A DNA stretch of 64,000 nucleotides from an uncultured archaeon (GCA_964512235.1 CAZEGD010000001.1:42874-106873), one strand, 5' to 3'; shown: positions 10,195-48,761, numbered from the stretch's first letter. The notes: generated by a model from the sequence alone, not told the origin. Made by a program: numbers and translations.

Positions 10195-10235
10195 ACTATA
10201 TATTTTGGGGAATTAACGTAAGAATTTTATTGAAA

Positions 10236-10378: not shown

Positions 10379-10466
10379 GGGCCGGTAGCTTAGTTTGGTT
10401 GGAGCACTCGGCTGATAATCAAAATCAGATACCGAGCGGTCGCCGGTTCAAATCCGGCTCGGCCCA
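10379..10466 (+). tRNA. tRNA-Ile (anticodon GAU) with a 13-nt intron at 37/38
   Basis: Acceptor GGGCCGG/TCGGCCC. Anticodon stem CTCGG/CCGAG. Loop CTGATA + intron ATCAAAATCAGAT (10418-10430) + A. Intron UCAG pairs with CUGA (32-35), followed by the bulge AU|A. Confidence 0.85.
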
Positions 10467-10512
10467 CTCCAACGAAAAGATTAAAAATAGAGAGACTAAT
10501 GAAATATATTGG

Positions 10513-10634
10513 GCTCCCTTCGTCTAGTCCGGTCAAGGATCTCAGGCTTTCGGGTTATACTTAGAAAGCATTGAGCTGAAAAGCTGTGATAACGAAGATA
10601 CCTGATGACGCGGGTTCAAATCCCGCAGGGAGCA
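10513..10634 (+). tRNA. tRNA-Glu (anticodon UUC) with a 47-nt intron at 37/38
   Basis: Acceptor GCTCCCT/AGGGAGC. Anticodon stem TCAGG/CCTGA. Loop CTTTCG + intron 10553-10599 + A. Central helix CUUU/GAAG. Flanking 3-nt bulges. Inner helix GUUAU/AUAAC. This is a canonical BHB. Confidence 0.85.
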
Positions 10635-10712
10635 TCTTAAGATAAAGCCCATTCAAAACCTGATATGAGCCTAAAGGATAACAGTTATCGTTGAGTAAAT
10701 CTTAACTTATTC

Positions 10713-11249
10713 ATGAAATTTACGGTTCACAACATGGTAATTACGGTTGAATTTTCTGGTAAAATAGATCTTAACAAGCTATTCAAAAAACTCGAAAATT
10801 CTGAGTACGAACCAAAGCAGTTCCCCGGTTTGGTGTATAGGATGAAAAAGCCGAGAGTGAGCTTTTTAATATTCTCTTCTGGAAAGATGAACTGTACAGG
10901 CGCTACAAGCTTGAAAGAGGCAAAAAACGCGATAGGTAAGATGCTGAAAATATTCAGACAAACTGGAATAAAAACACACAAGCCGAGGATAGAAATTCAA
11001 AATATCGTCGCATCCGCCGAACTATATGCAAGGTTAAAACTCGATACCATAGCATTTAATTTGGAAAATTCTGAGTACGAACCAGAGCAGTTCCCTGGAC
11101 TAGTTTACAGAATAGCCAAGCCGAAGGTTGCATTTTTGCTGTTTGGTTCTGGGAAGATAGTATGTACTGGTGCAAGAAATACAAAGCAAATAGGGGAAGC
11201 TATCAACTACCTCACTAGGAAGTTGAAGAAAGTTCATGCTTTCAAATAA
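10713..11249 (+). CDS. tbp: TATA-box binding protein
   Basis: Two internal repeats: NSEYEPKQFPGLVYRMKKPRVSFLIFSSGKMNCTGA and NSEYEPEQFPGLVYRIAKPKVAFLLFGSGKIVCTGA. Confidence 0.95.
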   Translation: MKFTVHNMVITVEFSGKIDLNKLFKKLENSEYEPKQFPGLVYRMKKPRVSFLIFSSGKMNCTGATSLKEAKNAIGKMLKIFRQTGIKTHKPRIEIQNIVASAELYARLKLDTIAFNLENSEYEPEQFPGLVYRIAKPKVAFLLFGSGKIVCTGARNTKQIGEAINYLTRKLKKVHAFK

Positions 11250-11380
11250 TATTGACTTTTCAAGTCCCTATACTCAATTATAACGTATTATATAGTCCAC
11301 AATACTGCAACTCTTTTAAATCTTCCCCATTTTACACATCAAACTTATATCTCTTAATTTTCCCTATACAATTGGTAAGA

Positions 11381-11494
11381 ATGAGCGAGACGACCATAGG
11401 CGTAAGCAAAAGGCTCAAGCGAGAACTGAACAAGAAAAAGAAGCACAAAAAGGAAAGCTACGAGGAAGTCATCTGGTGTCTCATAAGAAAATAG
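11381..11494 (+). CDS. Small ribbon-helix-helix / VapB-like protein (37 aa)
   Basis: MSETTIGVSKRLKRELNKKKKHKKESYEEVIWCLIRK follows the I-x-V-S...L...K...ESY..VI..L pattern of short archaeal antitoxin-like proteins. The track ORF (11252) has an implausible N-terminal extension. Confidence 0.4.
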   Translation: MSETTIGVSKRLKRELNKKKKHKKESYEEVIWCLIRK

Positions 11495-11558
11495 TTTAGA
11501 ACAACCAATAACGTAACATTTAAATCCTCTGCACAACCCAACTAATTTTTAGAGAGAT

Positions 11559-11894
11559 ATGTCAAAAAGCATGTCGCTGTCTAGATTGAACAGGACATTA
11601 TATGCCAGGGTTGGCGGCAGAATCCCGAAATCTTGCATTCCCAGTAATCTTTTCGACTCAATTGAAAAGGCATTACATTTCCTCAAAGAGAGACTATCTT
11701 CAATTGACTTTAAATACGGGCCGTTGAAAGGTGACTTAAAGAGATGGAAAGATGTCCTACCTGAAGCCGAGAAGTTGATAGAAGAGCATAATGGAGGTAG
11801 CCCGAATTATGAAAGAGAACATGTGCTTGCATCACTCCAGATTTTGAACATTTACAACGGATATAAAGACCTTCTAGAGGCATACGATTCATAA
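11559..11894 (+). CDS. Hypothetical protein (111 aa)
   Basis: ORF only. Confidence 0.35.
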   Translation: MSKSMSLSRLNRTLYARVGGRIPKSCIPSNLFDSIEKALHFLKERLSSIDFKYGPLKGDLKRWKDVLPEAEKLIEEHNGGSPNYEREHVLASLQILNIYNGYKDLLEAYDS

Positions 11895-11944
11895 AGGCAT
11901 GACAGGAACAGAACTAATATACATGTTCTATCTAAGATAATTTT

Positions 11945-12748
11945 ATGGTTGACTTGAAGTTTGTGACAGATGTCTTTTCTGAAGAGGAGGCAAACGTCAT
12001 TGCAGTTAGGGTCAACTGTCCACAGTCTCTGATAGAAGCCAGTCGGATGGTCGAACCTTTTGACATTGACAGACAAAAGAATCTCTTAGAAGATGTGAAG
12101 ATTTTCGATGCGGGAGAAGCAGACTTAGACGGTGTATATAATGAGATCAAAGAAGTCATTACTGGAAAAAAGATTCCATTGATTCTTGCTGAAAGGCATA
12201 TTGCAAGCTTGGAAGCCATTCGGGCTTTACCAGAGGGTACAAAGATAGTAGTTTTTGATGCACATGCTGATCTGAAGGATGAATATTCAGAAGGCAATTA
12301 CAAACCTGTAGATGAGAAGAGAAATTATGCAACATGGCTTCGCAGAGCTTGTGAGATAATTGACCCGAAGAATGTATGCTTGATTGGAGTTAGATCGTGT
12401 GATGAGGATGAGTTTGAATTTATGAAAGACAGCGGGTTACTTTATTTTACAATTAATGATATTAAGAGTGGTGTGGAAAGCGTTAAGCAACGCCTGCAAA
12501 AATTTATAGGTGATTCATCAGTTTATGTGAGCATAGATATGGATGTATTTGACCCGTCGATTGTACCTGCTGTAGAGAATCCAGAGCCAAACGGTATATT
12601 ATATAGTGACTTTTTGCAGCTGAGTGAAGTCTTGGAGAAGATAATAGGAATAGACTTGGTCGAGATTCGACCATTAGCTAAAAACAGAGTTACAGAGTTC
12701 CTTGCAGTAAAGGTTATATTTAAGCTGTTGTCATTAATTTTTAGTTGA
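11945..12748 (+). CDS. speB: Ureohydrolase family (agmatinase/arginase-like)
   Basis: VVFDAHADLKDEY and YVSIDMDVFDPSIVPAVENPEPNGI are the Mn-binding DAHxD and SxDxDxxDP motifs. Confidence 0.8.
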   Translation: MVDLKFVTDVFSEEEANVIAVRVNCPQSLIEASRMVEPFDIDRQKNLLEDVKIFDAGEADLDGVYNEIKEVITGKKIPLILAERHIASLEAIRALPEGTKIVVFDAHADLKDEYSEGNYKPVDEKRNYATWLRRACEIIDPKNVCLIGVRSCDEDEFEFMKDSGLLYFTINDIKSGVESVKQRLQKFIGDSSVYVSIDMDVFDPSIVPAVENPEPNGILYSDFLQLSEVLEKIIGIDLVEIRPLAKNRVTEFLAVKVIFKLLSLIFS

Positions 12749-12757
12749 TTGTTAAAA

Positions 12758-12843
12758 GCGGGGGTCCGATAGTCTGGTCAATTCGGCTAGCTTGAGGTGC
12801 TAGTGGGTTAGTCCCTACGTGGGTTCAAATCCCACCTCCCGCA
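12758..12843 (+). tRNA. tRNA-Leu (anticodon GAG), type II with long variable arm
   Basis: Acceptor GCGGGGG/CTCCCGC. Anticodon stem CTAGC/GCTAG, loop TTGAGGT. Variable arm TGGGTTAGTCCCTAC. T arm GTGGG-TTCAAAT-CCCAC. Confidence 0.9.
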
Positions 12844-12897
12844 TTTAAAAAATCCCTTTGGAAAAGCTATAAATCTCTTCCCTTTCTCTATTATCTT

Positions 12898-13428
12898 ATG
12901 GTCAAAAAGGTAGCTGTATTAGGTCCATCTGGCTCGTTCTCAGAAGAGGCGGCTGTTGAGAGGTATGGGAAGGATATTATACTGGTCTATGGGAAGAAAT
13001 TTGATGACGTGTTAGATCTCGTGGAGATGGGAGAAGCGGACATTGCATTCCTTCCGGAACGGACTTCAGTGGGGGGACCAGTGTACCCGGTTCTTGATGC
13101 AATGTTGAACCATTCGCTTTTCATTACAGAAAAGTATGATTTCGAGCCGACATATTGCCTTGTTGGGAAGGGAGAGGAAAGTGACATTAAAAAGGTAGGT
13201 TCGCACCCACATGCATTGATTGCCATGAAAAAATATCTGGACAAAAACTTTCCAAATGCTGAAAGAGTGGAGACTCCGAGCACGTCCTTTGCTGCCCAGC
13301 TGGCATCAGAGAACCCGACATTCGGGGCCATAGCAAGCCGGACCGCGGCCAAGATATACAATCTGAAAGTGTTTTACAGTGTACAGTTCCCCCGGCCAAG
13401 GAATGGAAACGCACGCCTGAAGAGATAG
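12898..13428 (+). CDS. Prephenate dehydratase (PDT) domain protein, lacks ACT domain
   Basis: VAVLGPSGSFSEEAA...FLPERTSVGGPV...VGSHPHALIAMKKYL...FGAIASRTAAKIYNLKV resembles the PDT catalytic domain. The ORF ends ~15 aa after the PDT-like part with unrelated residues. Confidence 0.6.
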   Translation: MVKKVAVLGPSGSFSEEAAVERYGKDIILVYGKKFDDVLDLVEMGEADIAFLPERTSVGGPVYPVLDAMLNHSLFITEKYDFEPTYCLVGKGEESDIKKVGSHPHALIAMKKYLDKNFPNAERVETPSTSFAAQLASENPTFGAIASRTAAKIYNLKVFYSVQFPRPRNGNARLKR

Positions 13429-13497
13429 AATTTGGCATAAAGGTCAGATGAGTCTCAAAACATTTTTATAACTAAGAATTCCACCTCCCACATCATG

Positions 13498-14763
13498 TTA
13501 ATTTGCTTTTAATAGAATTCTTTTACCAGTGACATCATTTAGCAAATTTTGCAATTCTTTCAATTTTTCTTCTTTATCTTTTTGTAACCTTTTTCTTCTC
13601 TCTCCAATCATTTCATTCTCAATCTTAGTTTCTTCCATTCTTCTCTTTAGCTCATTAATCTCATTTTCCAATTTATTCTTTCTCTTTGGAACTTCCTGCA
13701 ATTCTATCCTTTCTTCTTGTCTTTCCAATTCCTCTGAAAGCCCTGAATATTCCTCAAGGATTTTTCCCATGGTATTGTCCTCTATCATCCTTTCAATAAC
13801 AGCCAAGAATTTGCCGCTATCCTTCAAATTCATCTTCCCCTCAATTATATTTGTTTTCATACCTTTGATGGCAGACATGAAAACTTCTCCCTTAGGATCT
13901 TTAGATAAAATGGATTCAAAGGAATGTTGTGCATAATCATCCAAAATTCTATTTTTAACAGACCATTTGTATTTCCTCAGGGGCTTTTCCACTTTTGCGA
14001 GAGATTGTATAAAGTCAGACTTTTTATTCTGCAGATTCATTTTCATTTCTTCTTTAATCCTCCGCATCTCTAAGAATGCCTTCCATTCATTGCCATCGAG
14101 TAATTTTTTCAACTCATCTTCAATTTTCTTATTCCTATCCTCCATTTCTTTCATTGTCTTCTCCAATTCCTTTGTTTCATCCTTCTTCAGCTCTTCTGTT
14201 AATCTTAATACTTCATTAGCAACCTCTTGCGTCCTTAGCAATTGCACGTTGGACTCTGCAAATTCTTTTACTATATTCCCCAGTCTCTTGTCTATTTCGA
14301 CTATCTGGCGGAAGCTCTCTATTACTTTATCTGCTTCCTTTTCGAACAATTCCTTCAAAAATGCATACTCTCTCACTGTTTTTGCGTTTATGATATTGAG
14401 TAATTTGGCAGTTTCATTATGGAAATTTAGGATAGAAGTCATGTCTTCTCCCATCGGTTTTTGTATTTGCTTGACCAGACTTTTCATCTTATTCGCAAAA
14501 CTCTTTCTGCTTCCCACAGCTTTTCTTATAAGCATGCGATCGTTTATTGTGGAATATGGAGCTTGTCCAAGAATTTCCAGTTGGTCTTGCATAGTATTGG
14601 CAGCCATCTGTAAGTTTGCATATTCCCTTTCAGCTGACTCTTTTAGAGGCTTGAAATCCTTTTTCATCTTCTCTGCTAGGAACCCTTCTACTTCTTTCAG
14701 CTGCATCTTCTCTTCTTCAAACTTTTCTTCTCTTTTTCCAAAAATTCTGTCTAACCAACCCAA
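13498..14763 (-). CDS. Long K/E-rich coiled-coil protein (421 aa)
   Basis: Heptad-like charged sequence throughout (e.g. EELERQEERIELQEVPKRKNKLENEINELKRRMEETKIENE). No enzymatic motif seen. Confidence 0.55.
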   Translation of the reverse strand: MGWLDRIFGKREEKFEEEKMQLKEVEGFLAEKMKKDFKPLKESAEREYANLQMAANTMQDQLEILGQAPYSTINDRMLIRKAVGSRKSFANKMKSLVKQIQKPMGEDMTSILNFHNETAKLLNIINAKTVREYAFLKELFEKEADKVIESFRQIVEIDKRLGNIVKEFAESNVQLLRTQEVANEVLRLTEELKKDETKELEKTMKEMEDRNKKIEDELKKLLDGNEWKAFLEMRRIKEEMKMNLQNKKSDFIQSLAKVEKPLRKYKWSVKNRILDDYAQHSFESILSKDPKGEVFMSAIKGMKTNIIEGKMNLKDSGKFLAVIERMIEDNTMGKILEEYSGLSEELERQEERIELQEVPKRKNKLENEINELKRRMEETKIENEMIGERRKRLQKDKEEKLKELQNLLNDVTGKRILLKAN

Positions 14764-14828
14764 TCCAATCAGAATTATGTAAGGTTATATAAAATAAAAG
14801 TTTATGTGTTCTGGAATGCTGTGTTGCA

Positions 14829-14852
14829 GGTTCAAATCCCACCTCCCACATT
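14829..14852 (+). repeat. Partial copy of the tRNA-Leu 3' end (T loop to acceptor end)
   Basis: ggttcaaatcccacctccc is identical to 12822-12840. One mismatch follows (a for g), then catt. Confidence 0.85.
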
Positions 14853-14932
14853 GTTTACAGCTGTAAATAAGAGTCCAATATTGCGGAAGGTAAGTTTGCT
14901 TTAAGATTCAAATTCAACTAATTAATAAGAAA

Positions 14933-15529
14933 TTAATTTCTAAAATTATATTTTTTTAAAAGTTCAGTATTTATACCTTCAATTAATAACTTTTCTTCCT
15001 CTGAAATTTCTCCTAATCTACCGATTTCAAAACTTAAAACAACTTTATTACCAACATATCTTTTAGGATGGTCAACAAATAAACTATAATATGAGAAAGA
15101 CGATGGAGAAGGCCAACTTAGTTGTTCATTTCTCGTCCTACAACTCAAAGTTACAAAAACATTTCCTCTATGCATTATAGCTTTAGCAATTTCTTCTGGA
15201 TTTTCTGTTTTAGCAGCCACATTTTTTATTTCAAAATTTACTTTTTCAAGATACTCTACAATTTCAAATAATTCATCTCGAAAATCTTTTTCTAATTCTT
15301 TTTGAACAGTTAATGCTGGAGTTGGCATACCTCTTGGACCAGGTGCATAAAGAACTCCGTCTTCAAATTTTATTAATTTCTCTGGTTCACCTTTTCCTCT
15401 TACATTAAAGCGTCCATACTGGAGAATGTCTGCAGAAAAATACCCAGATTTTCTACCTTCATATAAGATTTTAGGATATTCAACATGGCTTTGACCAGTA
15501 GTTAGTAAAGTACTTGTTTCTGCACCCAT
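14933..15529 (-). CDS. Hypothetical protein (198 aa) in a very AT-rich cassette
   Basis: ORF only. My hand count for 14941-15000 is 10 G+C of 60. Confidence 0.45.
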   Translation of the reverse strand: MGAETSTLLTTGQSHVEYPKILYEGRKSGYFSADILQYGRFNVRGKGEPEKLIKFEDGVLYAPGPRGMPTPALTVQKELEKDFRDELFEIVEYLEKVNFEIKNVAAKTENPEEIAKAIMHRGNVFVTLSCRTRNEQLSWPSPSSFSYYSLFVDHPKRYVGNKVVLSFEIGRLGEISEEEKLLIEGINTELLKKYNFRN

Positions 15530-15652
15530 ATTATCAAATTAATAAAGAACAGTTAAAGATTTATATATTTCCTCTAAGACCCCTTAGAGAAATCTTAAAT
15601 CTTTTCAAAACAATATAACAAAAAAGACGCACCGTACTTTTTGTTCTGTGCT

Positions 15653-15665
15653 CACCTCCCGCATT
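15653..15665 (+). repeat. Second partial copy of the tRNA-Leu 3' end
   Basis: cacctcccgcatt is identical to 12833-12845. The following gttt is shared with the flank of the 14829 copy. Confidence 0.7.
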
Positions 15666-15718
15666 GTTTTTTAGTTCTACATCAAGTTCAAGGTGGGCAT
15701 CCTAAAGAAAGTATCCTA

Positions 15719-16120
15719 TTATCCTTTCAATAGTATTTCCAACTTCATCCTTCTAAGCATCCTAGACCTTTTACCGGAGAAGATGTACAGTTCCTTTCCA
15801 TCATCAATTTCATAGAATCTGGTATTAGAGTAGTTCCCTATCACATGGTTCTGAGGATTATACTGGTTAAGGACCCTTTTGATTTTTTTGACTTCCTCGG
15901 GATACCTTGTTTTTTCTGAACCGAATCTAGGAAATGATACCTGATTTGTAGTGACGAGCAACTGAAAAGTGTACAAAAAATCTTCATCTGTAAAAGCCTT
16001 AAAAACTGAACTATCCCTGAAATCGGAATAACTTACCTCTAGATAATGTTTGTCCAGCTCATAGATTATTAGCCCCTTCAGGTCGAATATTTTATCTCCC
16101 ATATACGAGAATTCTTTCAA
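15719..16120 (-). CDS. Hypothetical protein (133 aa)
   Basis: ORF only. Confidence 0.4.
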   Translation of the reverse strand: MKEFSYMGDKIFDLKGLIIYELDKHYLEVSYSDFRDSSVFKAFTDEDFLYTFQLLVTTNQVSFPRFGSEKTRYPEEVKKIKRVLNQYNPQNHVIGNYSNTRFYEIDDGKELYIFSGKRSRMLRRMKLEILLKG

Positions 16121-16156
16121 TTAAATCTTAAATATGTAACATCCCTCGTAATATCT

Positions 16157-16882
16157 ATGCTGACCCAAGAAGAGTTGAATAAATCCTATATGAGGAGCGG
16201 TATATCCTCTGCTAAGATTTATGCACATATATGGGAATCTTTCTCAAGAGATAATGGAAAGACAAAACCAAGAGGATATTTGAGCCTATCACCTTCGATA
16301 GAGAGTTACGTTTTAGCGCAAGTTGGACATCTGAATAAGAAATTAGAGTGGAGTTCTATTGGTAAGGAAATCATGTCATTCTTCAAATGTTATCCATATT
16401 CTCCAGAGAATGTTCTAAGTTTGGGCTGTGGTATTGGCAATGGTTTAAAGACTGTGAAAAAATATGGAAGTAAACTACTTGTGGGAATTGACGTGGGTCT
16501 TCCGGTATTAAAATTGGCCAAGTCAAACTTGCCAGACGGAGATTTTGTATGTGCATCCTCCACTCATTTACCTTTTAGAGATTCAGTTTTCGACACGTTT
16601 ATAACTGGACATTTTTTTGAACCTATGACCAATCGGGAATCCAGATTTACATTTGAGGAAATCAAAAGATGCTCCATAAAAAATTGTCTATGGTTTGTTT
16701 CAGTCGAAGGGGAAGAGATTTTTGAAAGTTATCATATACAAAAATTCGGTAAGGGTGGGTGGGGTGTTATTCACAAACATCCATATATAAGCAAAGTTTC
16801 CCCAGTACCGGGTTCGGATTATAGACTGTGTGGTGCCGAATTTTTAGTCTTAAAGTCATTATACAGTGGTAATGATGAATGA
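16157..16882 (+). CDS. Class I SAM-dependent methyltransferase
   Basis: Motif I-like LSLGCGIGNG. Then GIDVGLPVLKLAK, then LPFRDSVFDTF (Methyltransf_11-like layout). Confidence 0.6.
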   Translation: MLTQEELNKSYMRSGISSAKIYAHIWESFSRDNGKTKPRGYLSLSPSIESYVLAQVGHLNKKLEWSSIGKEIMSFFKCYPYSPENVLSLGCGIGNGLKTVKKYGSKLLVGIDVGLPVLKLAKSNLPDGDFVCASSTHLPFRDSVFDTFITGHFFEPMTNRESRFTFEEIKRCSIKNCLWFVSVEGEEIFESYHIQKFGKGGWGVIHKHPYISKVSPVPGSDYRLCGAEFLVLKSLYSGNDE

Positions 16883-17222
16883 AAAGAAACTCATTCCAAT
16901 AGAGGACGCTTGGGACACCCCGCTCATATTTTATATTTACTTTGAGGGTGGAGTTGAAGAATACTACAATATTCCAAGGGACAAGAGAAGGGAATTCAAT
17001 AAAAAGTTTAAAAAAGAATATACCCCAAATTCAACCAGTTCAACTGTTCCAGACATTTCAATTGTCCGAAAGTTGTGTAGAAAATACGGGTCCTTTATGT
17101 TAAAGTCGCAGTTTGAAAAGCTGTCTACACTACCTGTAGGAATTTCGACTACTGGTAGAGAAGGGTATAGAAAATACGTAGTAATGGGATATAAAGTACC
17201 CAAAGATGAAGAAAACATTTGA
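16866..17222 (+). CDS. Hypothetical protein (118 aa)
   Basis: ORF only. Overlaps the preceding gene by 17 nt on the same strand. Confidence 0.35.
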   Translation: MVMMNEKKLIPIEDAWDTPLIFYIYFEGGVEEYYNIPRDKRREFNKKFKKEYTPNSTSSTVPDISIVRKLCRKYGSFMLKSQFEKLSTLPVGISTTGREGYRKYVVMGYKVPKDEENI

Positions 17223-17287
17223 ACATTACGAATGCTATGCAATCCTCAAAGGAACATATTTAAATCCAATGACTACTAGTTGATTTT

Positions 17288-17530
17288 ATGAAAGACGAGG
17301 AAAAAGAGAAAGATGTAAAACTGGGAGAGTTTCAACTCAAGCAAGATTCCGTCCTTGTGATAAAGAAGACCACATACAAAGGCAATGAAAGGATAGACTT
17401 TCGCGTGTGGAAGAACTCACCAACATACAAAGGCCCAACTAAGCAGGGGTTTGTTCTGCAGATGGACCAAATAGACGATTTCATAGAGATGATAGAAGAG
17501 ATGAAGGGAAAGTTGAAAGAAGTGGAATAA
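17288..17530 (+). CDS. PC4/Sub1-like ssDNA-binding fold protein (80 aa)
   Basis: VLVIKKTTYKGNERIDFRVWKNSPTYKGPTKQGFVLQMDQIDDFIEMIEEM follows the PC4 C-terminal-domain pattern (KG..hDhR.W....+PTKKGhsL...Q...h). Recognised by eye only. Confidence 0.45.
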   Translation: MKDEEKEKDVKLGEFQLKQDSVLVIKKTTYKGNERIDFRVWKNSPTYKGPTKQGFVLQMDQIDDFIEMIEEMKGKLKEVE

Positions 17531-39316: not shown

Positions 39317-39464
39317 AATTACTATATTCTAATAGGATTTTAAAAACGCCGAGGGTGGACGCTGTACAACTTGTACAGAGCCTAAAGTTCGGTGTAAAAT
39401 CAAAAAGAATATTAAATACAGAAAGATAATAAACTTTTTAAATTCAAAATCCACCTTCTTAAAT

Positions 39465-40589
39465 ATGGTGTTCACAACATTAGAAGATGGGAGGATAAAA
39501 TACCAAGGGAATAAGTTATTTCCACCTATCGATGATATAAAAAGTAGAAATTTAGCCGTAGAACATATAGAAAATAGAATACATAGTATAAAAACCAATC
39601 AAATGTGGGAAAAAATAACTCTTATAAATGACATTATCTTCAAATCTACAGTTGACTTTTTCTCTTCTATAGGAGCAAAATTCATTCCTTTACCACTTAC
39701 AACAAAAATGATATCTTCTCCGGGAGCTGTTTATGGAAAGAAAAAAATCAATTATACAACTGATACAAAACCAATAAAGTTAAAATGGTTCAATTTATCT
39801 GAACCTGTCTTTCTGTCAGAATCTTCACAAATATACCTAGAACTTGTTCTTCTACAAAATAATATCGACCATGTTTTTTCTATTTATAACTCTTTTAGGA
39901 AAGAAGAAGCAGATACTACTCACCTATCGGAGTTTCATCATATAGAATACGAAGGACACGTCACACAGGAAAAAAACTTGGAAACGATAGAAAGTCTTGT
40001 GAAAACTATTTTAAAAAATATTCTAAAGAAAAAATATCTTTTAGAGTTTTTCCTAGAAGAAGGGGATATAAGAAATTTGGAAATCCTTGCAAAGGATCAC
40101 TTTATCCAAATAAAATTTAAAGACGTTCTAAGAATGTTATACGAGGAGACAAAAGATGAAAAATACAAGAAATTTACAACTAAGTATTTTGGATTTTGGG
40201 AAGAAGTTAAGATCACAGAAATATTGGGTAATAAAATAGTAGTTATCAAAGAGTTTCCATTATTAGAAACGGCGTTCTACCATGCACCAAAAGTTGTTGA
40301 TGGAGTACAAGTTGCAAACAATGCTGATATAATATGGCCTAGTTATAAGGAATTTGTAGGAAGTGGACAACGTGTAGGAACACTAAAAGAACTGATGAAA
40401 AAAGCAAAATTTTTCACTCTACCAAAAAAAGATTATGAACCATATTTACAATCCAGAAGATACGATGACTATAAAATAAGTTCTGGATTTGGAATGGGCT
40501 GGGAAAGATTATTACAAGGTTTACTTAAAATGCCTACCATAATATCAGTTTGTCACTTTCCAAGAATCCACGATAAAATGATACCCTAA
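39465..40589 (+). CDS. AsnRS/AspRS-like class IIb catalytic core without anticodon-binding domain (AsnA-like)
   Basis: Motif 1 region GAKFIPLPLTT. LSESSQIYLEL. Motif 2 VFSIYNSFRKEEADTTHLSEFHHIEYE. EFVGSGQRVGTLKEL...YEPYLQSRRYDDYKISSGFGMGWERLL parallels the AsnRS pattern GEIIGGSQRE...YWWYLDLRRYG..PHSGFGLGFERL. No OB-fold N-domain. Confidence 0.7.
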   Translation: MVFTTLEDGRIKYQGNKLFPPIDDIKSRNLAVEHIENRIHSIKTNQMWEKITLINDIIFKSTVDFFSSIGAKFIPLPLTTKMISSPGAVYGKKKINYTTDTKPIKLKWFNLSEPVFLSESSQIYLELVLLQNNIDHVFSIYNSFRKEEADTTHLSEFHHIEYEGHVTQEKNLETIESLVKTILKNILKKKYLLEFFLEEGDIRNLEILAKDHFIQIKFKDVLRMLYEETKDEKYKKFTTKYFGFWEEVKITEILGNKIVVIKEFPLLETAFYHAPKVVDGVQVANNADIIWPSYKEFVGSGQRVGTLKELMKKAKFFTLPKKDYEPYLQSRRYDDYKISSGFGMGWERLLQGLLKMPTIISVCHFPRIHDKMIP

Positions 40590-40643
40590 TTAAGTTATTA
40601 TTTTTAACTATCAATTAATTATAATTCAGAGGATGATTATACT

Positions 40644-41684
40644 ATGAAATTGATTAAACCACCTTCATTGCAAAAAGGGGATAGTATAGCTATAGTAGCT
40701 CCCTCTTCTGGTTTAGCTGCTTTATTTCCTCATCGTTTGGAAAGAGCTGTAAAGTTTTTGGAAAAAATTGGTTATAAAATAAAGGTTTTTCCGACAGCTC
40801 GCTCTATAAAGAAATGGAGTTCGGGGAGTCCTAAGGAAAGGGCATGCGATATAAACAATGCATTTGAAGACAATGAGGTTAAAGCTATAATATGTTCCAT
40901 AGGAGGTATAGTCGCGAATCAGACACTCAAATACATTAATTTTGATATTATAAGGAAGAAGCCAAAAATATTTTGCGGGTACTCGGATATCTCAGTTCTA
41001 CATTATGCGTTTCATACAGTCGCCGGTTTAGTCACGTTCTACGGTCCTTGTGCAATGACCCAATTTGGTGAATATCCTGAACCATTAAAATATACAGTAA
41101 ACCACTTTGAAATGGCTGTAGGGAATAACAAACCTATCGGTAGAATAAACCCCTCTGAAAAATGGACAGATGAAGTGTTGGATTGGGCTAACAAGTTAGA
41201 TATTGAAAGACCAAGAGGGCTAAAGACTAACTCAGGATTTCAATGGTTACGTGAGGGTAAGGTTTCTGGCCGTGTAATGGGGGGGTGTATATCTTCTATT
41301 GTACATCTCCGTGGAACCAAATTCTGGCCGAATCAAAAAGACCGAATATTTTTTATAGAAATTTCAGAGGGTCAAGAGTCTTCTAGTGGTGAACCACTCT
41401 CATACGTGGATTCATATCTGACAAATCTTGAAATTTCAGGTGTCTTTCAAGATATAAATGGTCTTATAGTAGGTAGACCCTTCAGGTACACCAATGAAGA
41501 TACAGAGGAATTAAAAAGGATAATTTTAGAACAAACAAAAGAGTACGATTTCCCAATTTTATTTGGTGCGGACATTGGTCATACGGATCCAATGATAACA
41601 ATACCACTAGGAACTAAAGTAGAGTTAGATTCGAACTCTAATAGCTTTGTTTTTCTAGAATCTGGAACATCAAACAACCTTTGA
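40644..41684 (+). CDS. S66-family LD-carboxypeptidase / MccF-like serine peptidase
   Basis: GDSIAIVAPSS. Nucleophile elbow FCGYSDISVLH. C-terminal FGADIGHTDPMITIPLG (Ser-His-Glu family layout). Confidence 0.8.
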   Translation: MKLIKPPSLQKGDSIAIVAPSSGLAALFPHRLERAVKFLEKIGYKIKVFPTARSIKKWSSGSPKERACDINNAFEDNEVKAIICSIGGIVANQTLKYINFDIIRKKPKIFCGYSDISVLHYAFHTVAGLVTFYGPCAMTQFGEYPEPLKYTVNHFEMAVGNNKPIGRINPSEKWTDEVLDWANKLDIERPRGLKTNSGFQWLREGKVSGRVMGGCISSIVHLRGTKFWPNQKDRIFFIEISEGQESSSGEPLSYVDSYLTNLEISGVFQDINGLIVGRPFRYTNEDTEELKRIILEQTKEYDFPILFGADIGHTDPMITIPLGTKVELDSNSNSFVFLESGTSNNL

Positions 41685-41733
41685 CTCATGGGAATAGAAA
41701 GACATTAATCCTTTTGGGTATATGACTTAACTT

Positions 41734-42864
41734 ATGAGAGTTTCGAGTCTAATTGGACACAAAATAAAAACGAGGAAGAAGTTTGATGATCTTGCAGAGC
41801 TTTTGACCAGCAGTTTTTTAGTAGAAACCTCTTTTTTCGACAACGATGGCTACAAAGGCCTTATAAAATTATCCATTGAAAAGTCTGTAGAGAATAATCT
41901 AGAAGCGTTGTTGAAAGAGCTAATGCAGAGAAGTGGAATACAACCAATTGAGTTGCCTACACTTCAACCTTATAATATTTTTGAGACTACTGATAGGATA
42001 GAAAAGTTTGGTAGAGAATTTGTGTCCACTACAGACGATAGGGTAGTTTTTCCCACATCAGAAGAACCCATAATCAACTATCTGGGCCGATTTGCAAACT
42101 TGTCATACAGAGAATTACCGATGTTAGTTTACCAATTTAAAAACTTCTTCAGGGCAACAACTCCGAAAGCCCTTATACGTCTACAAGAGTTTAAAGTACT
42201 TGATATATACAGCTTGAATGAAACTGAGGACTCCCTGAGAGAAACAATAAAAACAATAATAGAACCGATGTTTTTCCAACTGTGGGAAAGGCTAAACCTC
42301 AAAACAATACAACTGAAGAAAGATGAAAACTACATAGACATAAAAGTAAAGACAGCAGAAGGAAATGATACGATACCTAAAACTGGCGAAAGATGTCTAG
42401 GAATTGGCGTAATAATGAACCTTGGCAACAACTATTCAAAAAAATTTGGATTGGGGGTTGCCGATTCTTCTAATAACCTAGTGTATCCGTATCTTGGATC
42501 CTACGCTATAGGGATAGAACGGTTGATTTATGCTATGGTAGACCAAGGAAGAACAAAATCAAAAGGGGTCAACACTATTAAATGGCCTGAAGGAATCGAA
42601 CCTGTAACTTATTATGTTATAAAAATAGGAGAAAGCAATTATGGTGAAAAAATATATAAAGAACTTATTTCTAGAAATAAAAGAGTTCTATTGGATGATA
42701 GTAAAGACACTTTAGGAACAAAATTCGCACGGGCCTATGCCATAGGAGCACCATACATCATTAGTGCTGGCCCAAAAGAAGAGTCTAGAAAGATTGTAGG
42801 TATTGAAGAAAGTTACACAGGTGAGAGATGGGAAATAGAGTTTGATAAACTATTGTGCATGTGA
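41734..42864 (+). CDS. Divergent ProRS-like class IIa paralogue (motif 2 degenerate)
   Basis: LPTLQP, FPTSEEPI, SYRELPMLVYQFKNFFRATTPKALIRLQEFKVLDIYSL (compare YQF..KYRDE..R.GLFRTKEFLMKDAYSF in the next gene), GSYAIGIERL, and a HGTP-type anticodon-binding domain YYVIKIGES...LLDDSKDTLGTKFARAYAIGAPYIISAGPKE. Confidence 0.6.
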   Translation: MRVSSLIGHKIKTRKKFDDLAELLTSSFLVETSFFDNDGYKGLIKLSIEKSVENNLEALLKELMQRSGIQPIELPTLQPYNIFETTDRIEKFGREFVSTTDDRVVFPTSEEPIINYLGRFANLSYRELPMLVYQFKNFFRATTPKALIRLQEFKVLDIYSLNETEDSLRETIKTIIEPMFFQLWERLNLKTIQLKKDENYIDIKVKTAEGNDTIPKTGERCLGIGVIMNLGNNYSKKFGLGVADSSNNLVYPYLGSYAIGIERLIYAMVDQGRTKSKGVNTIKWPEGIEPVTYYVIKIGESNYGEKIYKELISRNKRVLLDDSKDTLGTKFARAYAIGAPYIISAGPKEESRKIVGIEESYTGERWEIEFDKLLCM

Positions 42865-42869
42865 ATACT

Positions 42870-44132
42870 ATGAGAAGGTCACAACTTTTTACACCAACAG
42901 GCAAAGCCGATGAGAGAGAAATGCTTAGTCGAAGTCTGGAATTAAGTTTGAGGGGTGGCTTTGTTCGCCAGACAGGTTCTGGCCTTTATAGTTATACACC
43001 CACAGGTGTCAGGGTTCTTTATAATATATCATCTCTTGTCAGAAAGGAAATGAATAATATTAATGCACAGGAAGTACTTCTTCCATCCTTACAGCCAGCA
43101 GAGTTGTGGAAGGAGAGCGGTAGATGGGAAGTATACAAAGGTAGTATATTTACTATCCAAGATAGCCAAAACAAGAAGTATTGTCTAGCCCCAACATGCG
43201 AAGAAGCCATGGTAGATCTTGTGAGGGGTAATGTCAGATCATATAAGAACTTGCCACTAACCTTATATCAGTTCAGCCAGAAGTATAGGGATGAAAAGGT
43301 AAGACAGGGTCTCTTCAGAACAAAAGAATTCTTAATGAAAGATGCTTATAGCTTCCATTTTAGTGAGGATGACCTCGATAAGACGTATCAGAAGATGAGG
43401 CAGGCATATACTAACATCTTTGAAGAACTAGAACTGGATTTCTTCTTATCTTCAGCCGAGACTGGTGAGATGGGAGGGAAAAGGTCTGAAGAACTTATTG
43501 CCTTGACGGATGTTGGAACAGACAAGTTCGTTGTTTGTTCACAGAAGGAATGTCATTTTGGAAGCCCCATAGATAGTGGTATAAAAGAGTGTTCTATCTG
43601 TGGTAGAGACTTGCAACTGAAAACAGGTATTGAATTAGCTCACTTGTTCAAGTTGGGAGACCGATACAGTAAACAAATGGATCTAACCTTCGCTGACAGA
43701 GATGGTTCGATAAGATATATGGAAATGGGTTGTTATGGGATAGGGATTAGCAGACTAATCCCAACAATAATAGAACAGAACAATGACGAAAAAGGTATAA
43801 TATGGCCAGAAAATGTGGCTCCATTTAAAGAAGTTATTATTCCTACAAGCCAAAAGAAGTCAAATCTCGCTAGACTCTCTAATCAGTTATACTATGAGCT
43901 GAACGAAAAAAGATTAGATCCGTTGTTGGACGATAGAGATGTTTCAGCTGGCACAAAATTTGCTGAATCTGATTTGATGGGGATTCCAAGAAAAATAATT
44001 ATAGGTCCTAAATCCTTGGCCAAAGGTAAGATAGAGGTGGAGCATCGTAGAGGCGGTAAAGATTTTTTAGAAATTGAAAATTTCGTTGCAGAATATATAA
44101 AAAAGTATTATTTAGGACATACAACTGCCTAA
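42870..44132 (+). CDS. proS: Prolyl-tRNA synthetase, bacterial-type architecture without INS editing domain
   Basis: MRRSQLFTPTGK...GSGLYSYTPTGVRVL...LLPSLQPAELWKESGRWEVY...LAPTCEEAM...SYKNLPLTLYQFSQKYRDEKVRQGLFRTKEFLMKDAYSF...MGCYGIGISRL...DDRDVSAGTKFAESDLMGIPRKIIIGPK. The track start 42855 is a GTG 5 codons upstream. Confidence 0.75.
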   Translation: MRRSQLFTPTGKADEREMLSRSLELSLRGGFVRQTGSGLYSYTPTGVRVLYNISSLVRKEMNNINAQEVLLPSLQPAELWKESGRWEVYKGSIFTIQDSQNKKYCLAPTCEEAMVDLVRGNVRSYKNLPLTLYQFSQKYRDEKVRQGLFRTKEFLMKDAYSFHFSEDDLDKTYQKMRQAYTNIFEELELDFFLSSAETGEMGGKRSEELIALTDVGTDKFVVCSQKECHFGSPIDSGIKECSICGRDLQLKTGIELAHLFKLGDRYSKQMDLTFADRDGSIRYMEMGCYGIGISRLIPTIIEQNNDEKGIIWPENVAPFKEVIIPTSQKKSNLARLSNQLYYELNEKRLDPLLDDRDVSAGTKFAESDLMGIPRKIIIGPKSLAKGKIEVEHRRGGKDFLEIENFVAEYIKKYYLGHTTA

Positions 44133-44188
44133 GATGTTGATAAAGTAATAATAAATTTATTGTAAACTTACAAACTCATATTATAGAA

Positions 44189-45013
44189 ATGATAAATATG
44201 TCAAGAGAAATCACACCAGCTAGTATAAAGGACATGTCCTATATAGATTTTATGGCTTTTCTCAATGAGACCAACAAACCGCCAGGAGGAAAGAAATCAC
44301 TAATAGATGTAGCTCAACTATGCTTCTTGAATAAGGACAAGAAAGTTCTTCATGTAGGTTGTAGTACTGGATATTCGACCTTTGAACTTAACCGATTAAC
44401 AGGTTGTAAAATAGTAGGGATAGACATCAGTTCCAACATGATTAAAAGAGCCAATGAGAAAAGAGAGAAAGATATGAATAGAACCAATGTAACATTTCGA
44501 GTTGCCGATGCCACAAAATTTCCTTTCGAGGACAATACATTCGATGTTGTGTTTTCGGCGGGTGCTACAGCTTTCTTTGAGGACATACAAAAAGGAGTAG
44601 CTGAATGCAAACGTGTTGTTAAACCATGGGGCTTCATGGTCGATGTAAACTTCTATTATAAGAAAGACCCACCGCAGAGTTTGATAGATGAATTGAATAA
44701 GACTATGGATATCCACATAAAAAAACGGAGTAAGGAAGATTGGATAAGAATATACGAAGATGCCGACCTGGATGTTTATTATATTAAAGATGGAAAAACA
44801 AAAACTGTTACGAAAGAGCAAATAGAAGAATACGCAGAAAAAACCGCTAGGAGAGTGACCTCTGGTTCAGAAATCATAAAAACGATAAAGGAAAAACTGA
44901 TACCCATAATGGAGCTTTTCAATAGAAACAATGAGTACTTAGCATACTCGATATTCATCTTTCGCAAGCACCCTGACGAAGAGCCTAAAGATATCTACTT
45001 GTTTGAACCTTAA
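44189..45013 (+). CDS. Class I SAM-dependent methyltransferase
   Basis: Motif I VLHVGCSTGYST. GIDISSNMIKRANEK. FDVVFSAGA. Confidence 0.7.
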   Translation: MINMSREITPASIKDMSYIDFMAFLNETNKPPGGKKSLIDVAQLCFLNKDKKVLHVGCSTGYSTFELNRLTGCKIVGIDISSNMIKRANEKREKDMNRTNVTFRVADATKFPFEDNTFDVVFSAGATAFFEDIQKGVAECKRVVKPWGFMVDVNFYYKKDPPQSLIDELNKTMDIHIKKRSKEDWIRIYEDADLDVYYIKDGKTKTVTKEQIEEYAEKTARRVTSGSEIIKTIKEKLIPIMELFNRNNEYLAYSIFIFRKHPDEEPKDIYLFEP

Positions 45014-45132
45014 CCAAATATTTTTCAAGAATACAATTAGTTCAACGCCTACTCAACATTCTATTTCCAATTTTCAAAAAATTGAGCTAGATGCTGATTT
45101 GACAGCAAAAACTAAAGAATTGAAAAATTCTA

Positions 45133-45215
45133 CGCCGAGGGTGGGATTTGAACCCACATGGGCAAAGCCCGCTGGTTTTCAAGACCAGTGCACCACCTGG
45201 TTATGCGACCTCGGC
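45133..45215 (-). tRNA. tRNA-Ser (anticodon UGA), type II
   Basis: Acceptor GCCGAGG/CCTCGGC, discriminator G. Anticodon stem CTGGT/ACCAG, loop CTTGAAA. Long variable arm CGGGCTTTGCCCAT. T arm GTGGG-TTCAAAT-CCCAC. Confidence 0.9.
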
Positions 45216-45274
45216 ATACCTAAAGAATAATTCATAGAAATAAGATATAAAAGTACTCTCCCAATCCAATGAGC

Positions 45275-46729: not shown

Positions 46730-47482
46730 CTAATGCCTGCGAACCAGCCAGAATTTTACAATTGCTAGAATTGTTATGAGCGCGCATAGACCGATTATAA
46801 TCATCTCTAGCGGAGTGCACTCACATATACGCGTCAGTTTCTCAATCATCGCATTTACATAGGCGCTCAGTTGTGCCTCCGGGGAAGTCACATTGGTTAT
46901 CGGTATTTGGGTTGTAGTTGTTATAGGTATGACCGTGGTAGTTGTAGGTACAGTCGTGGTAGTCGTTCCAATCGTCGTAGATGTCAGACCCGCCCCAACC
47001 GATATGTCTTCTGATATAACTACATCGGTTTCTGGTGCATCTGCTTCGGATGTTATGTTTATCATTATGGGCTTGCTTGCGGAAGCTCTCAATTGGCCAT
47101 ACTCTCCATAGACATTAAGCGAATAGATAGCATATCCTGCCTGGGCCTCTGGGATTGTTATGTCGTAGTAGAGCTTACCGCTCTCCCCAAACTCCAGGGA
47201 TATGCTTTCATGCTGCCTGAGCCAATCTTCAGGGATTTTTGAAACGCCTACATATATTGGATCAAGCTCAAGCACACCTGTGTTTTTCACTTCCACCCAG
47301 TACGTTGCTGTAGTGCCGGGTGGCTGAAGTACGTAGGAGTCATAGTCAACAATCTCTACGTCAACTATAAAGGGGATGGACTGCGCAAGCGCTGTAGCTG
47401 CAAAGATTGAAAACATAGTTAGAAACGTAATTGTGACTGCATAAACTCTTAAAGCCGTTGCAACTTTCGTCGAATCTTCCAT
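46730..47482 (-). CDS. Secreted/surface protein with Thr-rich stalk and C-terminal TM anchor
   Basis: N-terminal hydrophobic signal. Ig/CARDB-like core (VEVKNTGVLELDPIYVGVSKIPEDW). TSTTIGTTTTTVPTTTTVIPITTTTQIPIT. C-terminal TM IIIGLCALITILAIVKFWLV. Confidence 0.6.
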   Translation of the reverse strand: MEDSTKVATALRVYAVTITFLTMFSIFAATALAQSIPFIVDVEIVDYDSYVLQPPGTTATYWVEVKNTGVLELDPIYVGVSKIPEDWLRQHESISLEFGESGKLYYDITIPEAQAGYAIYSLNVYGEYGQLRASASKPIMINITSEADAPETDVVISEDISVGAGLTSTTIGTTTTTVPTTTTVIPITTTTQIPITNVTSPEAQLSAYVNAMIEKLTRICECTPLEMIIIGLCALITILAIVKFWLVRRH

Positions 47483-47630: not shown

Positions 47631-48761
47631 GTGAACATGAAAATGAAACTGCTTTTTCAGGAGAAATTGTTTTTAGTATCCGTATTTGCTTTAGCTATCT
47701 CAGTTATCGTACTCAGCTCTATTGCCGTATCGAGGATGACATTCTACAGCTTCTCGATTAGCTTGCCAGATGAAGTGATAGCCAAGCCAGGGGAGGCTGT
47801 GACTATAGACGGTGACATCCAAGTGACTGGATTTTATTGGCTGCATCGGTTTGAGCTGGTAATGGATGGGATAGATTACGATTATGAGATTGATCCAGAA
47901 TATTGGCAGGACATACGCATAATCCGGGAATGGAACCCCCGAGATGGCGTCTATCGTATACCAGAGACTTTTTCAATAACTATCAATGTACCGGAAGATG
48001 CAAGCGGGTTGTATATAGCCACAGTCACCGGCCAAGAGCATCACTCTTGGAGAGAAGTTTCGAACTCGACTTTCTTCGTTCTAAAGATAGAAGGTGTGCC
48101 TCCTGTGGAAGAGCCTGAAAAGGTCATTAACGTCACGGACATACTCGTTCCTGAAGAGATAGAATCGGGTGAGCAATTCAGCATAACATTCCGCGTAGAT
48201 AATTATGGGGAAGAAAAGACTGCTGTTGAGGTATCTATTCTCGCTCCAGAAGACTGGGATATTGAACAGGAGTCACAGTATTTGGATGTAGCTGCCGGAG
48301 AGTCGGCAGCAGGAATGTTCAAACTGACACCGACAGAATCTGCAGGAACAATTTCGCTCTATCTTGAATATCCATACAGAGAAGAAATCATAAACTTCAC
48401 GCGGGTAGGGCCATACTTGCAACCTGTCACTACGACTACAACAACCACTACAACTGTTGTTGAGAAGCCGTTTATAGTCGAGATTTATGATAGCATTGTG
48501 AATACCATCGGCAATGTTTGGAACAGTATTAAAGTGGTTGTTGGTGGAGATGGGGATGCAGTCGATACATTCACGCCACTGACTTTAGGCATAATCGGAG
48601 TCCTGATTGTCGTAATCATTTGGCTTGTATGGGGCATAGTAAAAGACATCGGTAAGGGTGGCAGTAAGAAACCGGAGACCATGAAAAAGGAAATGCCAGC
48701 TACTGCAGAAGTAGGCGTCGTTAGCGAATCAGGTACCTTCGATGGAGTAGATAAATTATAA
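47631..48761 (+). CDS. Secreted/surface protein with Thr-rich stalk and C-terminal TM anchor
   Basis: Signal-like LFLVSVFALAISVIVL. CARDB/NEW3-like FSITFRVDNYGEEKTAVEVSILAPEDW. VTTTTTTTTTVV. TM LTLGIIGVLIVVIIWLVWGIV. The start may be ATG 47637. Confidence 0.6.
   Translation: MNMKMKLLFQEKLFLVSVFALAISVIVLSSIAVSRMTFYSFSISLPDEVIAKPGEAVTIDGDIQVTGFYWLHRFELVMDGIDYDYEIDPEYWQDIRIIREWNPRDGVYRIPETFSITINVPEDASGLYIATVTGQEHHSWREVSNSTFFVLKIEGVPPVEEPEKVINVTDILVPEEIESGEQFSITFRVDNYGEEKTAVEVSILAPEDWDIEQESQYLDVAAGESAAGMFKLTPTESAGTISLYLEYPYREEIINFTRVGPYLQPVTTTTTTTTTVVEKPFIVEIYDSIVNTIGNVWNSIKVVVGGDGDAVDTFTPLTLGIIGVLIVVIIWLVWGIVKDIGKGGSKKPETMKKEMPATAEVGVVSESGTFDGVDKL

Follow-up and report, generated by a model that had tools for sequence, protein, structure and literature searches.

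Here we focus on a group of five genes, g1 to g5, found in a 64,000-nucleotide stretch of DNA from an uncultured archaeon (GCA_964512235.1, CAZEGD010000001.1:42874-106873), which is referred to below as the window. Judged by its sequence, this operon is somewhat likely to be a combined producer and immunity module for a prolyl- or aspartyl-nucleotide inhibitor of an aminoacyl-tRNA synthetase (aaRS), made without a ribosomal peptide. Within a widespread family of clusters centered on g1 and g5, undescribed in the papers we found, it represents the proline type. The original prediction, made from the DNA alone, had proposed a toxin/immunity or aminoacyl-transfer module and had left two options, a resistance island or a compact producer with its own immunity. 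Comparative genomics supports a module of this kind, and the second option fits better; pairs of g4-like and S66 peptidase genes also occur on their own. The arrangement had been called unfamiliar, and we likewise found no paper that links a protein resembling asparaginyl-tRNA synthetase (AsnRS) with MccD or MccF, or that describes such archaeal clusters, in a searchable literature that is incomplete.

The five genes lie on the plus strand between positions 39465 and 45013, at the coordinates and in the order first proposed, and Pfam and NCBIfam profiles uphold the domain identities assigned to all five proteins. First comes g1 (39465..40589, 374 residues), an AsnRS-like core proposed to act as a scaffold-forming ligase. 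It is followed by g2 (40644..41684, 346 residues), an MccF-type S66 serine peptidase and the proposed aminoacyl-nucleotide amide hydrolase for immunity and perhaps scaffold release. Two paralogues of bacterial-type prolyl-tRNA synthetase (ProRS) come next: the degenerate g3 (41734..42864, 376 residues), a proposed prolyl transferase, and the near-canonical g4 (42870..44132, 420 residues), the proposed toxin-insensitive and/or charging copy. Last is g5 (44189..45013, 274 residues), an MccD-family transferase dependent on S-adenosylmethionine (SAM), for which alkylation of a phosphoramidate with a 3-amino-3-carboxypropyl or methyl group is proposed. Calling of open reading frames (ORFs) leaves gaps of 54, 49, 5 and 56 nt between successive genes. 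An alternative start of g4 exists at 42855, and the ATG at 42870 is most likely the true one, because homologues and the NCBIfam ProRS models start at MRRSQLF. In PADLOC, g1 to g4 match no known anti-phage defense system, and g5 matches only a generic methyltransferase model.

From profile searches, it was evident that g1 is a class IIb catalytic core and little else. The only domain matched is tRNA-synt_2, and the alignment spans positions 106-449 of the 451-position AsnRS model. The OB anticodon-binding domain, which the original prediction had also found missing, gives no match (PF01336), and just 148 nt of non-coding DNA lie upstream of the gene. Against the NCBIfam equivalogs g1 scores 147 bits for AsnRS (cut-off 414) and 103 bits for archaeal asparagine synthetase A (AsnA; cut-off 389), and since it falls far below both cut-offs it is neither of the two; the score against EpmA is likewise weak and far below its cut-off. 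The best Protein Data Bank (PDB) matches are AsnRS chains (E=1e-21), with the solved archaeal AsnA at 3e-5, and g1 has 374 residues against 294 in the solved AsnA chains. Both motif 2 (FRKE...HLSEF) and motif 3 (GFGMGWER) remain intact, and they are invariant across a family of 597 relatives of about 376 residues, 50-60% identical, with a mean column identity of 68% over archaea and bacteria.

These features bear on a first alternative, in which the operon is ordinary housekeeping: the cell would have in g4 its ProRS and in g1 an AsnRS or asparagine synthetase, beside unrelated neighbors. The frequent automatic annotation of g1 homologues as asparagine--tRNA ligase agrees with this, whereas the missing anticodon-binding domain and the two low equivalog scores do not. 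Moreover, full-length AsnRS genes scoring above cut-off stand beside g1 homologues in three loci (L006, L018 and L036), with two copies each in L006 and L018, and because of these copies g1 is certainly not the AsnRS of the L006 and L018 genomes. A third, partial class IIb synthetase is present in L018 (1-3800), and the arrangement beside the g1 homologue in L018 and L006 is a tandem one, a duplication of AsnRS in archaeal genomes of small size. Taken with the evidence on g4 given below, a housekeeping role is very improbable.

At the other end of the operon, g5 was identified through Pfam and NCBIfam as a class I SAM-dependent enzyme, as had been predicted, and its assignment can be made more specific. 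Its best solved relative is MccD (5fcd, E=4e-24), ten orders of magnitude ahead of other methyltransferases, and a profile built from 20 family members matches MccD over residues 7-267 with E=3e-43, the next methyltransferase following at 1e-23. The alignment with MccD takes in the N-terminal YxDFxA...N.PPG and NFYY segments, which lie outside the Rossmann core. By sequence, then, g5 is an MccD homologue over its full length. In the biosynthesis of microcin C, the phosphoramidate takes up a 3-amino-3-carboxypropyl group that MccD moves from SAM and that MccE1 then decarboxylates (PMC8323819).

The second Mcc-like component is g2, which has both S66 domains, PF02016 (Peptidase_S66) and PF17676 (S66C). 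It had been described as being of the LdcA/MccF type and read as an MccF-type enzyme, and a placement apart from the murein LD-carboxypeptidases (LdcA) is borne out: in the PDB g2 groups with MccF-type chains at E-values from 1e-64 to 1e-43 and matches LdcA only weakly, at 1e-17 to 1e-9, and it scores 92 bits against the LdcA equivalog of NCBIfam, where the cut-off is 378. Three short segments of g2, GYSD, EISE and GHTDP, align with their counterparts in B. anthracis BA3275, and g2 also has a loop with Trp residues, EKWTDEVLDW. From this segment-by-segment alignment, the three would hold a putative Ser-His-Glu triad, and the loop is a candidate for the adenine-stacking Trp loop, S118 and W186 being the E. 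coli residues of reference. MccF (S66) is one of three hydrolase classes shown to detoxify aminoacyl-nucleotides of the microcin C type, the others being MccH (HIT) and MccG (S51) (PMC9239234; PMC7157772; PMC8323819).

Between these components lies the ProRS paralogue pair. Both g3 and g4 combine the tRNA-synt_2b and HGTP_anticodon domains, and they share 27% identity across a gap of 5 nt. It is g4 that stays close to the canonical enzyme, passing the bacterial ProRS equivalog TIGR00409 (473 bits, cut-off 306.7) and keeping the ProRS motifs PTCEE, YRDE, HLFKLG and GCYGIGISR, as a housekeeping enzyme would; its motif-2 loop is shortened, reading E-KVRQG against EIRPRFG. The prediction of a bacterial architecture without the INS domain proved correct. 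About 22 residues occupy the place of residues 228-401 of S. aureus ProRS, and 63 residues lie between the anchors, against 214-221 in canonical enzymes. What replaces INS is a mini-insert with four cysteines (CxxxxC...CxxC) at about residues 222-246 of g4 (window positions ~43530-43610), which may, from its sequence, be a zinc knuckle. This insert is conserved in the g4 subclade of the window (P0253, P0275-P0279) and absent from the other INS-less subclade.

Few proteins make up the g4 clade, and its members are next to an S66 gene or within a full cluster in about 12 of 14 contexts. One of the exceptions, L003, is a 2.9-kb contig; in the other, L078, the g4-like gene stands alone among metabolic genes, a setting that would suit a housekeeping ProRS. 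Such a role is at odds, however, with the near-constant presence of an S66 gene beside so small a clade, with the conserved linkage of the cluster to MccD-like and MccF-like genes, and with the foreign base composition and repeat-bounded ends of the cassette, to which we return below. It is further at odds with L031, in which a full archaeal-type ProRS (563 bits, cut-off 437) is encoded about 10 kb from the cluster.

In g3, the enzyme is much further from the canonical form. Its best scores against ProRS models are 151 bits (cut-off 558) and 119 bits (cut-off 306.7), and motif 2 reads FRAT where ProRS has FRDE, in line with the degenerate motif 2 noted earlier. The Glu of this motif is thereby lost, as is the His of GHxF, and the INS domain is missing here as well, whereas the anticodon-binding domain, PTSEE and the motif-3 Arg are kept. 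The same pattern is found in all ProRS-x proteins, g3 included, with the motif-2 Glu and the GHxF His lost, PTxEE retained and usually both motif Arg residues retained. The g3 clade is rare, with nine representatives at E<1e-30 among 1.8 billion proteins, and a gene of this clade is always followed or overlapped by a g4-like gene; pairing of the g3/g4 type also occurs in L003, L014, L020, L047/48 and L075-77. The ProRSx of Streptomyces, which places Pro at Ala codons (PMC9437257), was considered as a model for g3 and set aside, there being no unusual tRNA-Pro in the window and a linkage to MccD-like and MccF-like genes instead.

To place the operon among its relatives, one genome per species was scanned for g1 homologues, and the ORFs of the resulting 68 loci were called, clustered and labeled, with g1 as "A" and g5 as "M". 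The percentages of linkage refer to the 47 loci from other genomes that have at least 4 kb downstream of the g1 homologue. The carriers are mostly metagenome-assembled genomes (MAGs) of Woesearchaeota, Nanoarchaeota and Pacearchaeota, joined by Natrinema, Haloarcula, Actinomadura, Paenibacillus, Microcoleus and a Zixibacteria MAG. A methyltransferase is encoded in 81% of the loci and a recognizable g5 homologue in 70%, usually as the very next gene. S66 is present in 72%, and S66, HIT or S51 in 89%; all three hydrolase families are found beside g1 homologues. At least one further aaRS-like gene occurs in 74% of the loci (ProRS-like in 43%, class IIb in 26%, class I in 11%), and the specificities of these extra paralogues cover Pro, Lys, Leu/Met and Asn/Asp. 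Other neighbors of g1 homologues include a pyridoxal phosphate (PLP)-dependent decarboxylase of the Orn/Arg type, an Acetyltransf_3 GNAT protein, radical SAM and ATP-grasp enzymes and a glycosyltransferase. Exporters were seen only in haloarchaeal loci, as an ABC ATPase and permease in the Natrinema clusters and as ABC-transporter-like ORFs near the Haloarcula locus.

The five kinds of gene, whose co-localization elsewhere had been left as a question, thus come together repeatedly in other genomes: L075-77 and L079 have all five components, ordered differently and with only part of g3 in L079, and a fragmented set of five is found in L080, with g1 in two ORFs and a partial second ProRS-like ORF. 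The broken g1 homologue of L080 may be decaying or frameshifted. The equivalent gene set of this locus (10001-17442) adjoins a serine recombinase on a bacterial-looking contig, with peptide deformylase and formyltransferase genes nearby.

Two types of cluster can be told apart. In type I, g1 and the MccD-like gene are accompanied by c7, a HIT gene and in some cases an extra AsnRS, and S66 is found in 0 of 6 loci, against 34 of the 41 others. The c7 protein, a recurrent product of 327 residues with no match in Pfam or the PDB, is encoded in L006, L010, L018, L023, L036, L037, L042 and L060. In type II, the partners of g1 and the MccD-like gene are a degenerate aaRS and an S66 or S51 hydrolase, and the window is a type II cluster of the proline subtype. 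The variable aaRS partners are mostly degenerate, with 270-418 bits for LysRS-like proteins (cut-offs 428-468), 110-197 bits for MetRS-like proteins (cut-offs 336-587) and no editing domain in LeuRS-like ones. Loci with such a degenerate partner have S66 or S51 in 28 of 30 cases, compared with 8 of the 17 loci without one (Fisher p=6e-4, uncorrected for relatedness). Among cultured carriers are Natrinema (L005, L009), Haloarcula (L053), Actinomadura (L054) and Paenibacillus (L049); the strains include Natrinema altunense AJ2, N. gari JCM 14663, Haloarcula regularis SYNS111 and Actinomadura miaoliensis JCM 16702. The Natrinema clusters adjoin a full LeuRS gene, the Haloarcula locus has a pentapeptide-repeat protein, and the Paenibacillus cluster has as extras a PLP decarboxylase, a ParA/Mrp ATPase, an APH kinase and two AMP-binding enzymes.

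The variation among these loci matters for a second alternative, in which no toxin is made and the cassette is an island of resistance only: g4 would be an insensitive ProRS, g2 would hydrolyze incoming aminoacyl-nucleotides, g1 and g3 would serve as decoys and g5 would inactivate the toxin by alkylation. Pairs of g4-like and S66 genes without g1 or g5 are found in L072 and L081, which looks like a stand-alone protective unit, and the cassette has no exporter and a mobile appearance in its repeat and third-position base composition. Most bacterial homologues of MccF, MccG and MccH are likewise stand-alone resistance genes (PMC9239234; PMC8323819). The same pairs, however, do without g1 and g5, which suggests that production is the part played by these two genes. 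With all its catalytic motifs kept and its high column identity across archaea and bacteria, g1 has the marks of an enzyme rather than of a sponge, and the sole characterized MccD adds a group that raises toxicity and does not detoxify (PMC8323819). Furthermore, g1 and the MccD-like gene are constant while hydrolases and aaRSs vary, as would be the case for a biosynthetic core with interchangeable immunity, and sister clusters hold tailoring enzymes (radical SAM, glycosyltransferase, ATP-grasp, decarboxylase) as well as exporters. Resistance alone is therefore, in our judgment, an unlikely account of the operon. In L072 (10001-15059), the g4-like ProRS and S66 peptidase genes are accompanied by a sodium:solute symporter gene, with an archaeal-type ProRS-like gene on the opposite strand that is divergent (214 bits, cut-off 437); this locus represents a unit for resistance only or else a producer of another type.

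If the operon is instead a producer with its own immunity, the known system with which to compare it is microcin C. The likeness is found in the MccD-family transferase and the MccF-type S66 protein of the window, and sister loci add HIT (MccH-like) and S51 (MccG-like) proteins, a PLP decarboxylase with an MccE1-like role, GNAT proteins and ABC exporters. It extends to a core related to Asn, since Asn is the last residue of all MccA peptides and g1 resembles AsnRS. In microcin C, it is MccB that turns Asn into the N-P linkage (PMC9239234). Unlike mcc clusters, the family of the window has neither MccA nor the ThiF-like MccB, and an AsnRS-like class II core holds the central place; extra aaRS paralogues, not a feature of mcc clusters, are present here, many of the hosts are archaea, and the cassette has no exporter. 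No ThiF domain was found in the five window proteins, and none among the 25 commonest of the 72 families formed by 93 operon mates of g1 homologues. A search for MccA-like precursors, covering ORFs of 6-42 residues with an ATG start in the 350 nt upstream of g1 in 64 loci, gave 6 of about 220 that end in Asn, without conservation among them; the other intergenic gaps of the cassette, of at most 56 nt, lay outside this search. Pfam detected no exporter among the five window genes.

The ProRS pair finds its counterpart in the ascamycin pathway. Here AcmD is a resistant copy of AlaRS that charges tRNA, AcmE is a hydrolase that takes off the alanyl group, and AcmF is a degenerate AlaRS-like enzyme, with activation residues lost, that acylates the nucleoside sulfamate at an amine from Ala-tRNA and thereby yields a mimic of an aminoacyl-adenylate (PMC12945691). 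Adjacent near-canonical (AcmD, g4) and degenerate (AcmF, g3) paralogues of one aaRS, together with a hydrolase (AcmE, g2), are thus common to both systems. In contrast to ascamycin, the aaRS of the window is ProRS (class IIa) and not AlaRS, genes for sulfamate formation and halogenation are missing, and the hydrolase is S66 rather than an alpha/beta hydrolase. In addition, g3 keeps its motif Arg residues, so that dependence on tRNA is an analogy only, and g1 and g5 are unrelated to the scaffold enzymes of the acm pathway. In sum, the cluster shares parts with mcc but lacks MccA and MccB, and shares the logic of acm but none of its scaffold genes.

Clusters that encode an extra aaRS of the target specificity are also known for albomycin (SerRS2), mupirocin (IleRS2), agrocin 84 (LeuRS) and the tiarins (PMC9437257). 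In the tiarins, the aaRS copies encoded in the biosynthetic gene cluster differ in specificity and mark the target, and the biosynthetic core that they accompany is conserved (bioRxiv 10.64898/2025.12.02.691738). The family described here differs from these self-resistance systems in that most of its aaRSs are degenerate and score under the family cut-offs, for which reason they look biosynthetic and not simply resistant; a near-canonical copy is found in some loci only, the window among them.

From these comparisons, a scheme can be drawn for the operon. In what is its weakest step, g1 would bind Asn and ATP and, in place of MccB and MccA, form an adenylate scaffold derived from Asn with an N-P (phosphoramidate) bond. 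This role is proposed for g1 because it is the constant partner of the MccD-like gene, because it is AsnRS-like, and because Asn is the residue that MccB uses for the N-P bond. As MccD does in microcin C, the homologous g5 would then alkylate the phosphate of the scaffold. By analogy with AcmD, g4 may charge tRNA-Pro and/or be insensitive to the product, while g3, translationally coupled to it and devoid of the adenine-contacting Glu of motif 2, could move Pro onto the scaffold in the manner of AcmF. Homology with MccF suggests that g2 would cut the aminoacyl-nucleotide amide bond, which would protect the producer and possibly free the bare phosphoramidate for re-acylation. The end product is expected to be a non-hydrolyzable mimic of an aminoacyl-adenylate that blocks a tRNA synthetase.

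Two forms of this product can be envisaged. In model (a), it would be an N-prolyl, O-alkyl phosphoramidate of adenosine with ProRS as its target, similar to phosmidosine, which is the N-prolyl, O-methyl phosphoramidate of 8-oxoadenosine from Streptomyces. In model (b), it would be an isoaspartyl-adenylate extended by Pro, which would target AspRS as microcin C does. Model (a) is favored because g4-like and S66 genes travel together as an apparent resistance unit. Phosmidosine shows that a prolyl-nucleotide phosphoramidate with an alkylated phosphate occurs in nature (PMC6429109). The resemblance to it holds at the level of the predicted product only, no paper on its biosynthetic genes having been found. 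Extended to the whole family, the scheme would become a peptide-free route by which archaea and some bacteria build aminoacyl-nucleotide phosphoramidate antibiotics on a scaffold derived from free asparagine. The degenerate aaRS that re-acylates this scaffold would be exchangeable (Pro, Lys, Leu, Met and others) and would retarget the toxin from cluster to cluster, the window holding the proline version. To our knowledge, this would be the first pathway for an aaRS inhibitor in DPANN-type archaea and in haloarchaea. The wider proposal is a tentative one, and we consider it doubtful.

A further alternative to an inhibitor is a non-toxic pathway of aminoacyl transfer that would yield a modified nucleotide, cofactor, solute, tRNA or protein, comparable to those of EpmA/PoxA and GluQRS, with the hydrolases recycling or proofreading the product. 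In archaeal AsnA (AS-AR) and EpmA/PoxA, as in g1, a class IIb core lacks the anticodon-binding domain, and g1 does score, if weakly, against the EpmA and AsnA models. Unlike these enzymes, g1 is nearer to AsnRS, falls under their cut-offs, is longer than the solved AsnA and is tied to MccD-like and MccF-like genes. Such a pathway would also agree with the many carriers that are MAGs of the Woesearchaeota/Nanoarchaeota type (DPANN); DPANN genomes are generally regarded as small, and accessory antibiotic clusters would be unexpected there. Ligases are known among aaRS cores without tRNA-binding domains, namely AsnA, EpmA and the amino-acid:carrier-protein ligases (PMC9437257). A non-toxic pathway would nevertheless leave unexplained three things: the occurrence, all beside g1, of three hydrolase families that are unrelated and have in common only the destruction of microcin-C-type aminoacyl-nucleotides; the near-canonical second copies of aaRSs (g4, and the duplicated full-length AsnRS of L006 and L018); and a patchy distribution over DPANN archaea, haloarchaea, Actinomadura, Paenibacillus, Microcoleus and Zixibacteria that resembles horizontal gene transfer. 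For these reasons we consider this pathway quite unlikely.

Several points weigh against the reading as producer and immunity module that we prefer. Every function proposed here is derived from sequence and genomic context, and we know of no precedent for the formation of an N-P bond by a class II aaRS core. Instead, the adenylate made by g1 could be an ordinary labile one, with its amino acid handed on to another acceptor. Both motif Arg residues and PTSEE persist in g3, so that this enzyme may activate proline itself and not use Pro-tRNA. The five-gene cassette comes without an exporter, which mcc clusters need. The genome was seen through the 64-kb window only, and g4 was judged apart from the ProRS complement of the genome; in L072, either copy may be the housekeeping one, because the archaeal-type ProRS-like gene, too, misses its cut-off (214 against 437 bits). 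Finally, the surveyed loci come from related genomes, and the percentages and Fisher tests overstate their independence.

Should the preferred reading be true, a second and convergent way to adenylate mimics of the microcin C type would exist, one that starts from paralogues of tRNA synthetases and not from a ribosomal peptide and an E1-like enzyme. New enzyme activities would come with it, in that a class II aaRS core would form N-P bonds and degenerate ProRS-, LysRS- and LeuRS-like proteins would carry out aminoacyl transfer. The type of aaRS found in a cluster would provide a genomic rule for predicting its target, and candidate variants of ProRS insensitive to inhibitors would be at hand. 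Warfare by means of aaRS inhibitors would reach into the archaea, including both DPANN lineages and culturable haloarchaea. The hypothesis is testable in the homologous clusters of cultured Natrinema, Haloarcula and Actinomadura.

As for its origin, the five genes look like a single operon acquired by horizontal transfer, and the composition of the cassette is foreign to its surroundings. The GC content at third codon positions is 0.24-0.37 in g1 to g5; for the flanking genes it is 0.38-0.51, or 0.40-0.51 without the adjacent bPH gene. The flanks hold archaeal housekeeping genes, which encode MetRS, Cbf5 (DKCLD and PUA domains), SecY with a Sec61-type plug, DUF1512 and phosphoenolpyruvate synthase.

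The cassette had been described as flanked by tRNA genes, and this is true of one side. Directly downstream lies tRNA-Ser(tga) on the minus strand (45132..45216), whereas upstream there is no tRNA, just a 13-nt copy of the tRNA-Ser 3' end, ACGCCGAGGGTGG (39346..39358, no strand assigned), 107 nt upstream of g1. The right copy of this direct repeat is the 3' end of the tRNA gene itself (45132-45144), and the two copies enclose precisely g1 to g5, which makes the left one a candidate att-like boundary. A general repeat scan missed the repeat; it was spotted by reading the flanks, followed by a DNA pattern search of the window. Its 12-nt core occurs twice in the 64 kb, where 0.03 occurrences are expected by chance and none of 100 shuffles gave two, and the 13th nucleotide is a preceding A that, as read from the sequence, both copies have in common. 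Such a pair of repeats is what insertion at a specific site within a tRNA gene would leave behind. We treat it as suggestive because 13 nt is short and because no integrase or recombinase is present in the cassette or in the annotated flanks of the window.

Reading of the region between the left repeat and g1 revealed two more elements. Right after the repeat, about 90 nt upstream of g1, lies a perfect palindrome, CTGTACAA-C-TTGTACAG (39362..39378, no strand assigned), a possible operator or transcription stop. Closer to the gene, 23-30 nt upstream of the g1 ATG on the plus strand, is the TATA-like sequence TTTTTAAA (39435..39442), a candidate archaeal promoter element.

Elsewhere in the window, two divergent ORFs (46730-47482 and 47631-48761) encode proteins with an N-terminal hydrophobic stretch, long poly-Thr linkers and a C-terminal hydrophobic anchor, which gives them the look of surface proteins. 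Lastly, a tRNA-Ile(gat) gene at 10379-10467 stands back to back with tRNA-Ala(cgc); at 89 nt it is unusually long for a tRNA other than tRNA-Leu or tRNA-Ser, and it may hold an intron.

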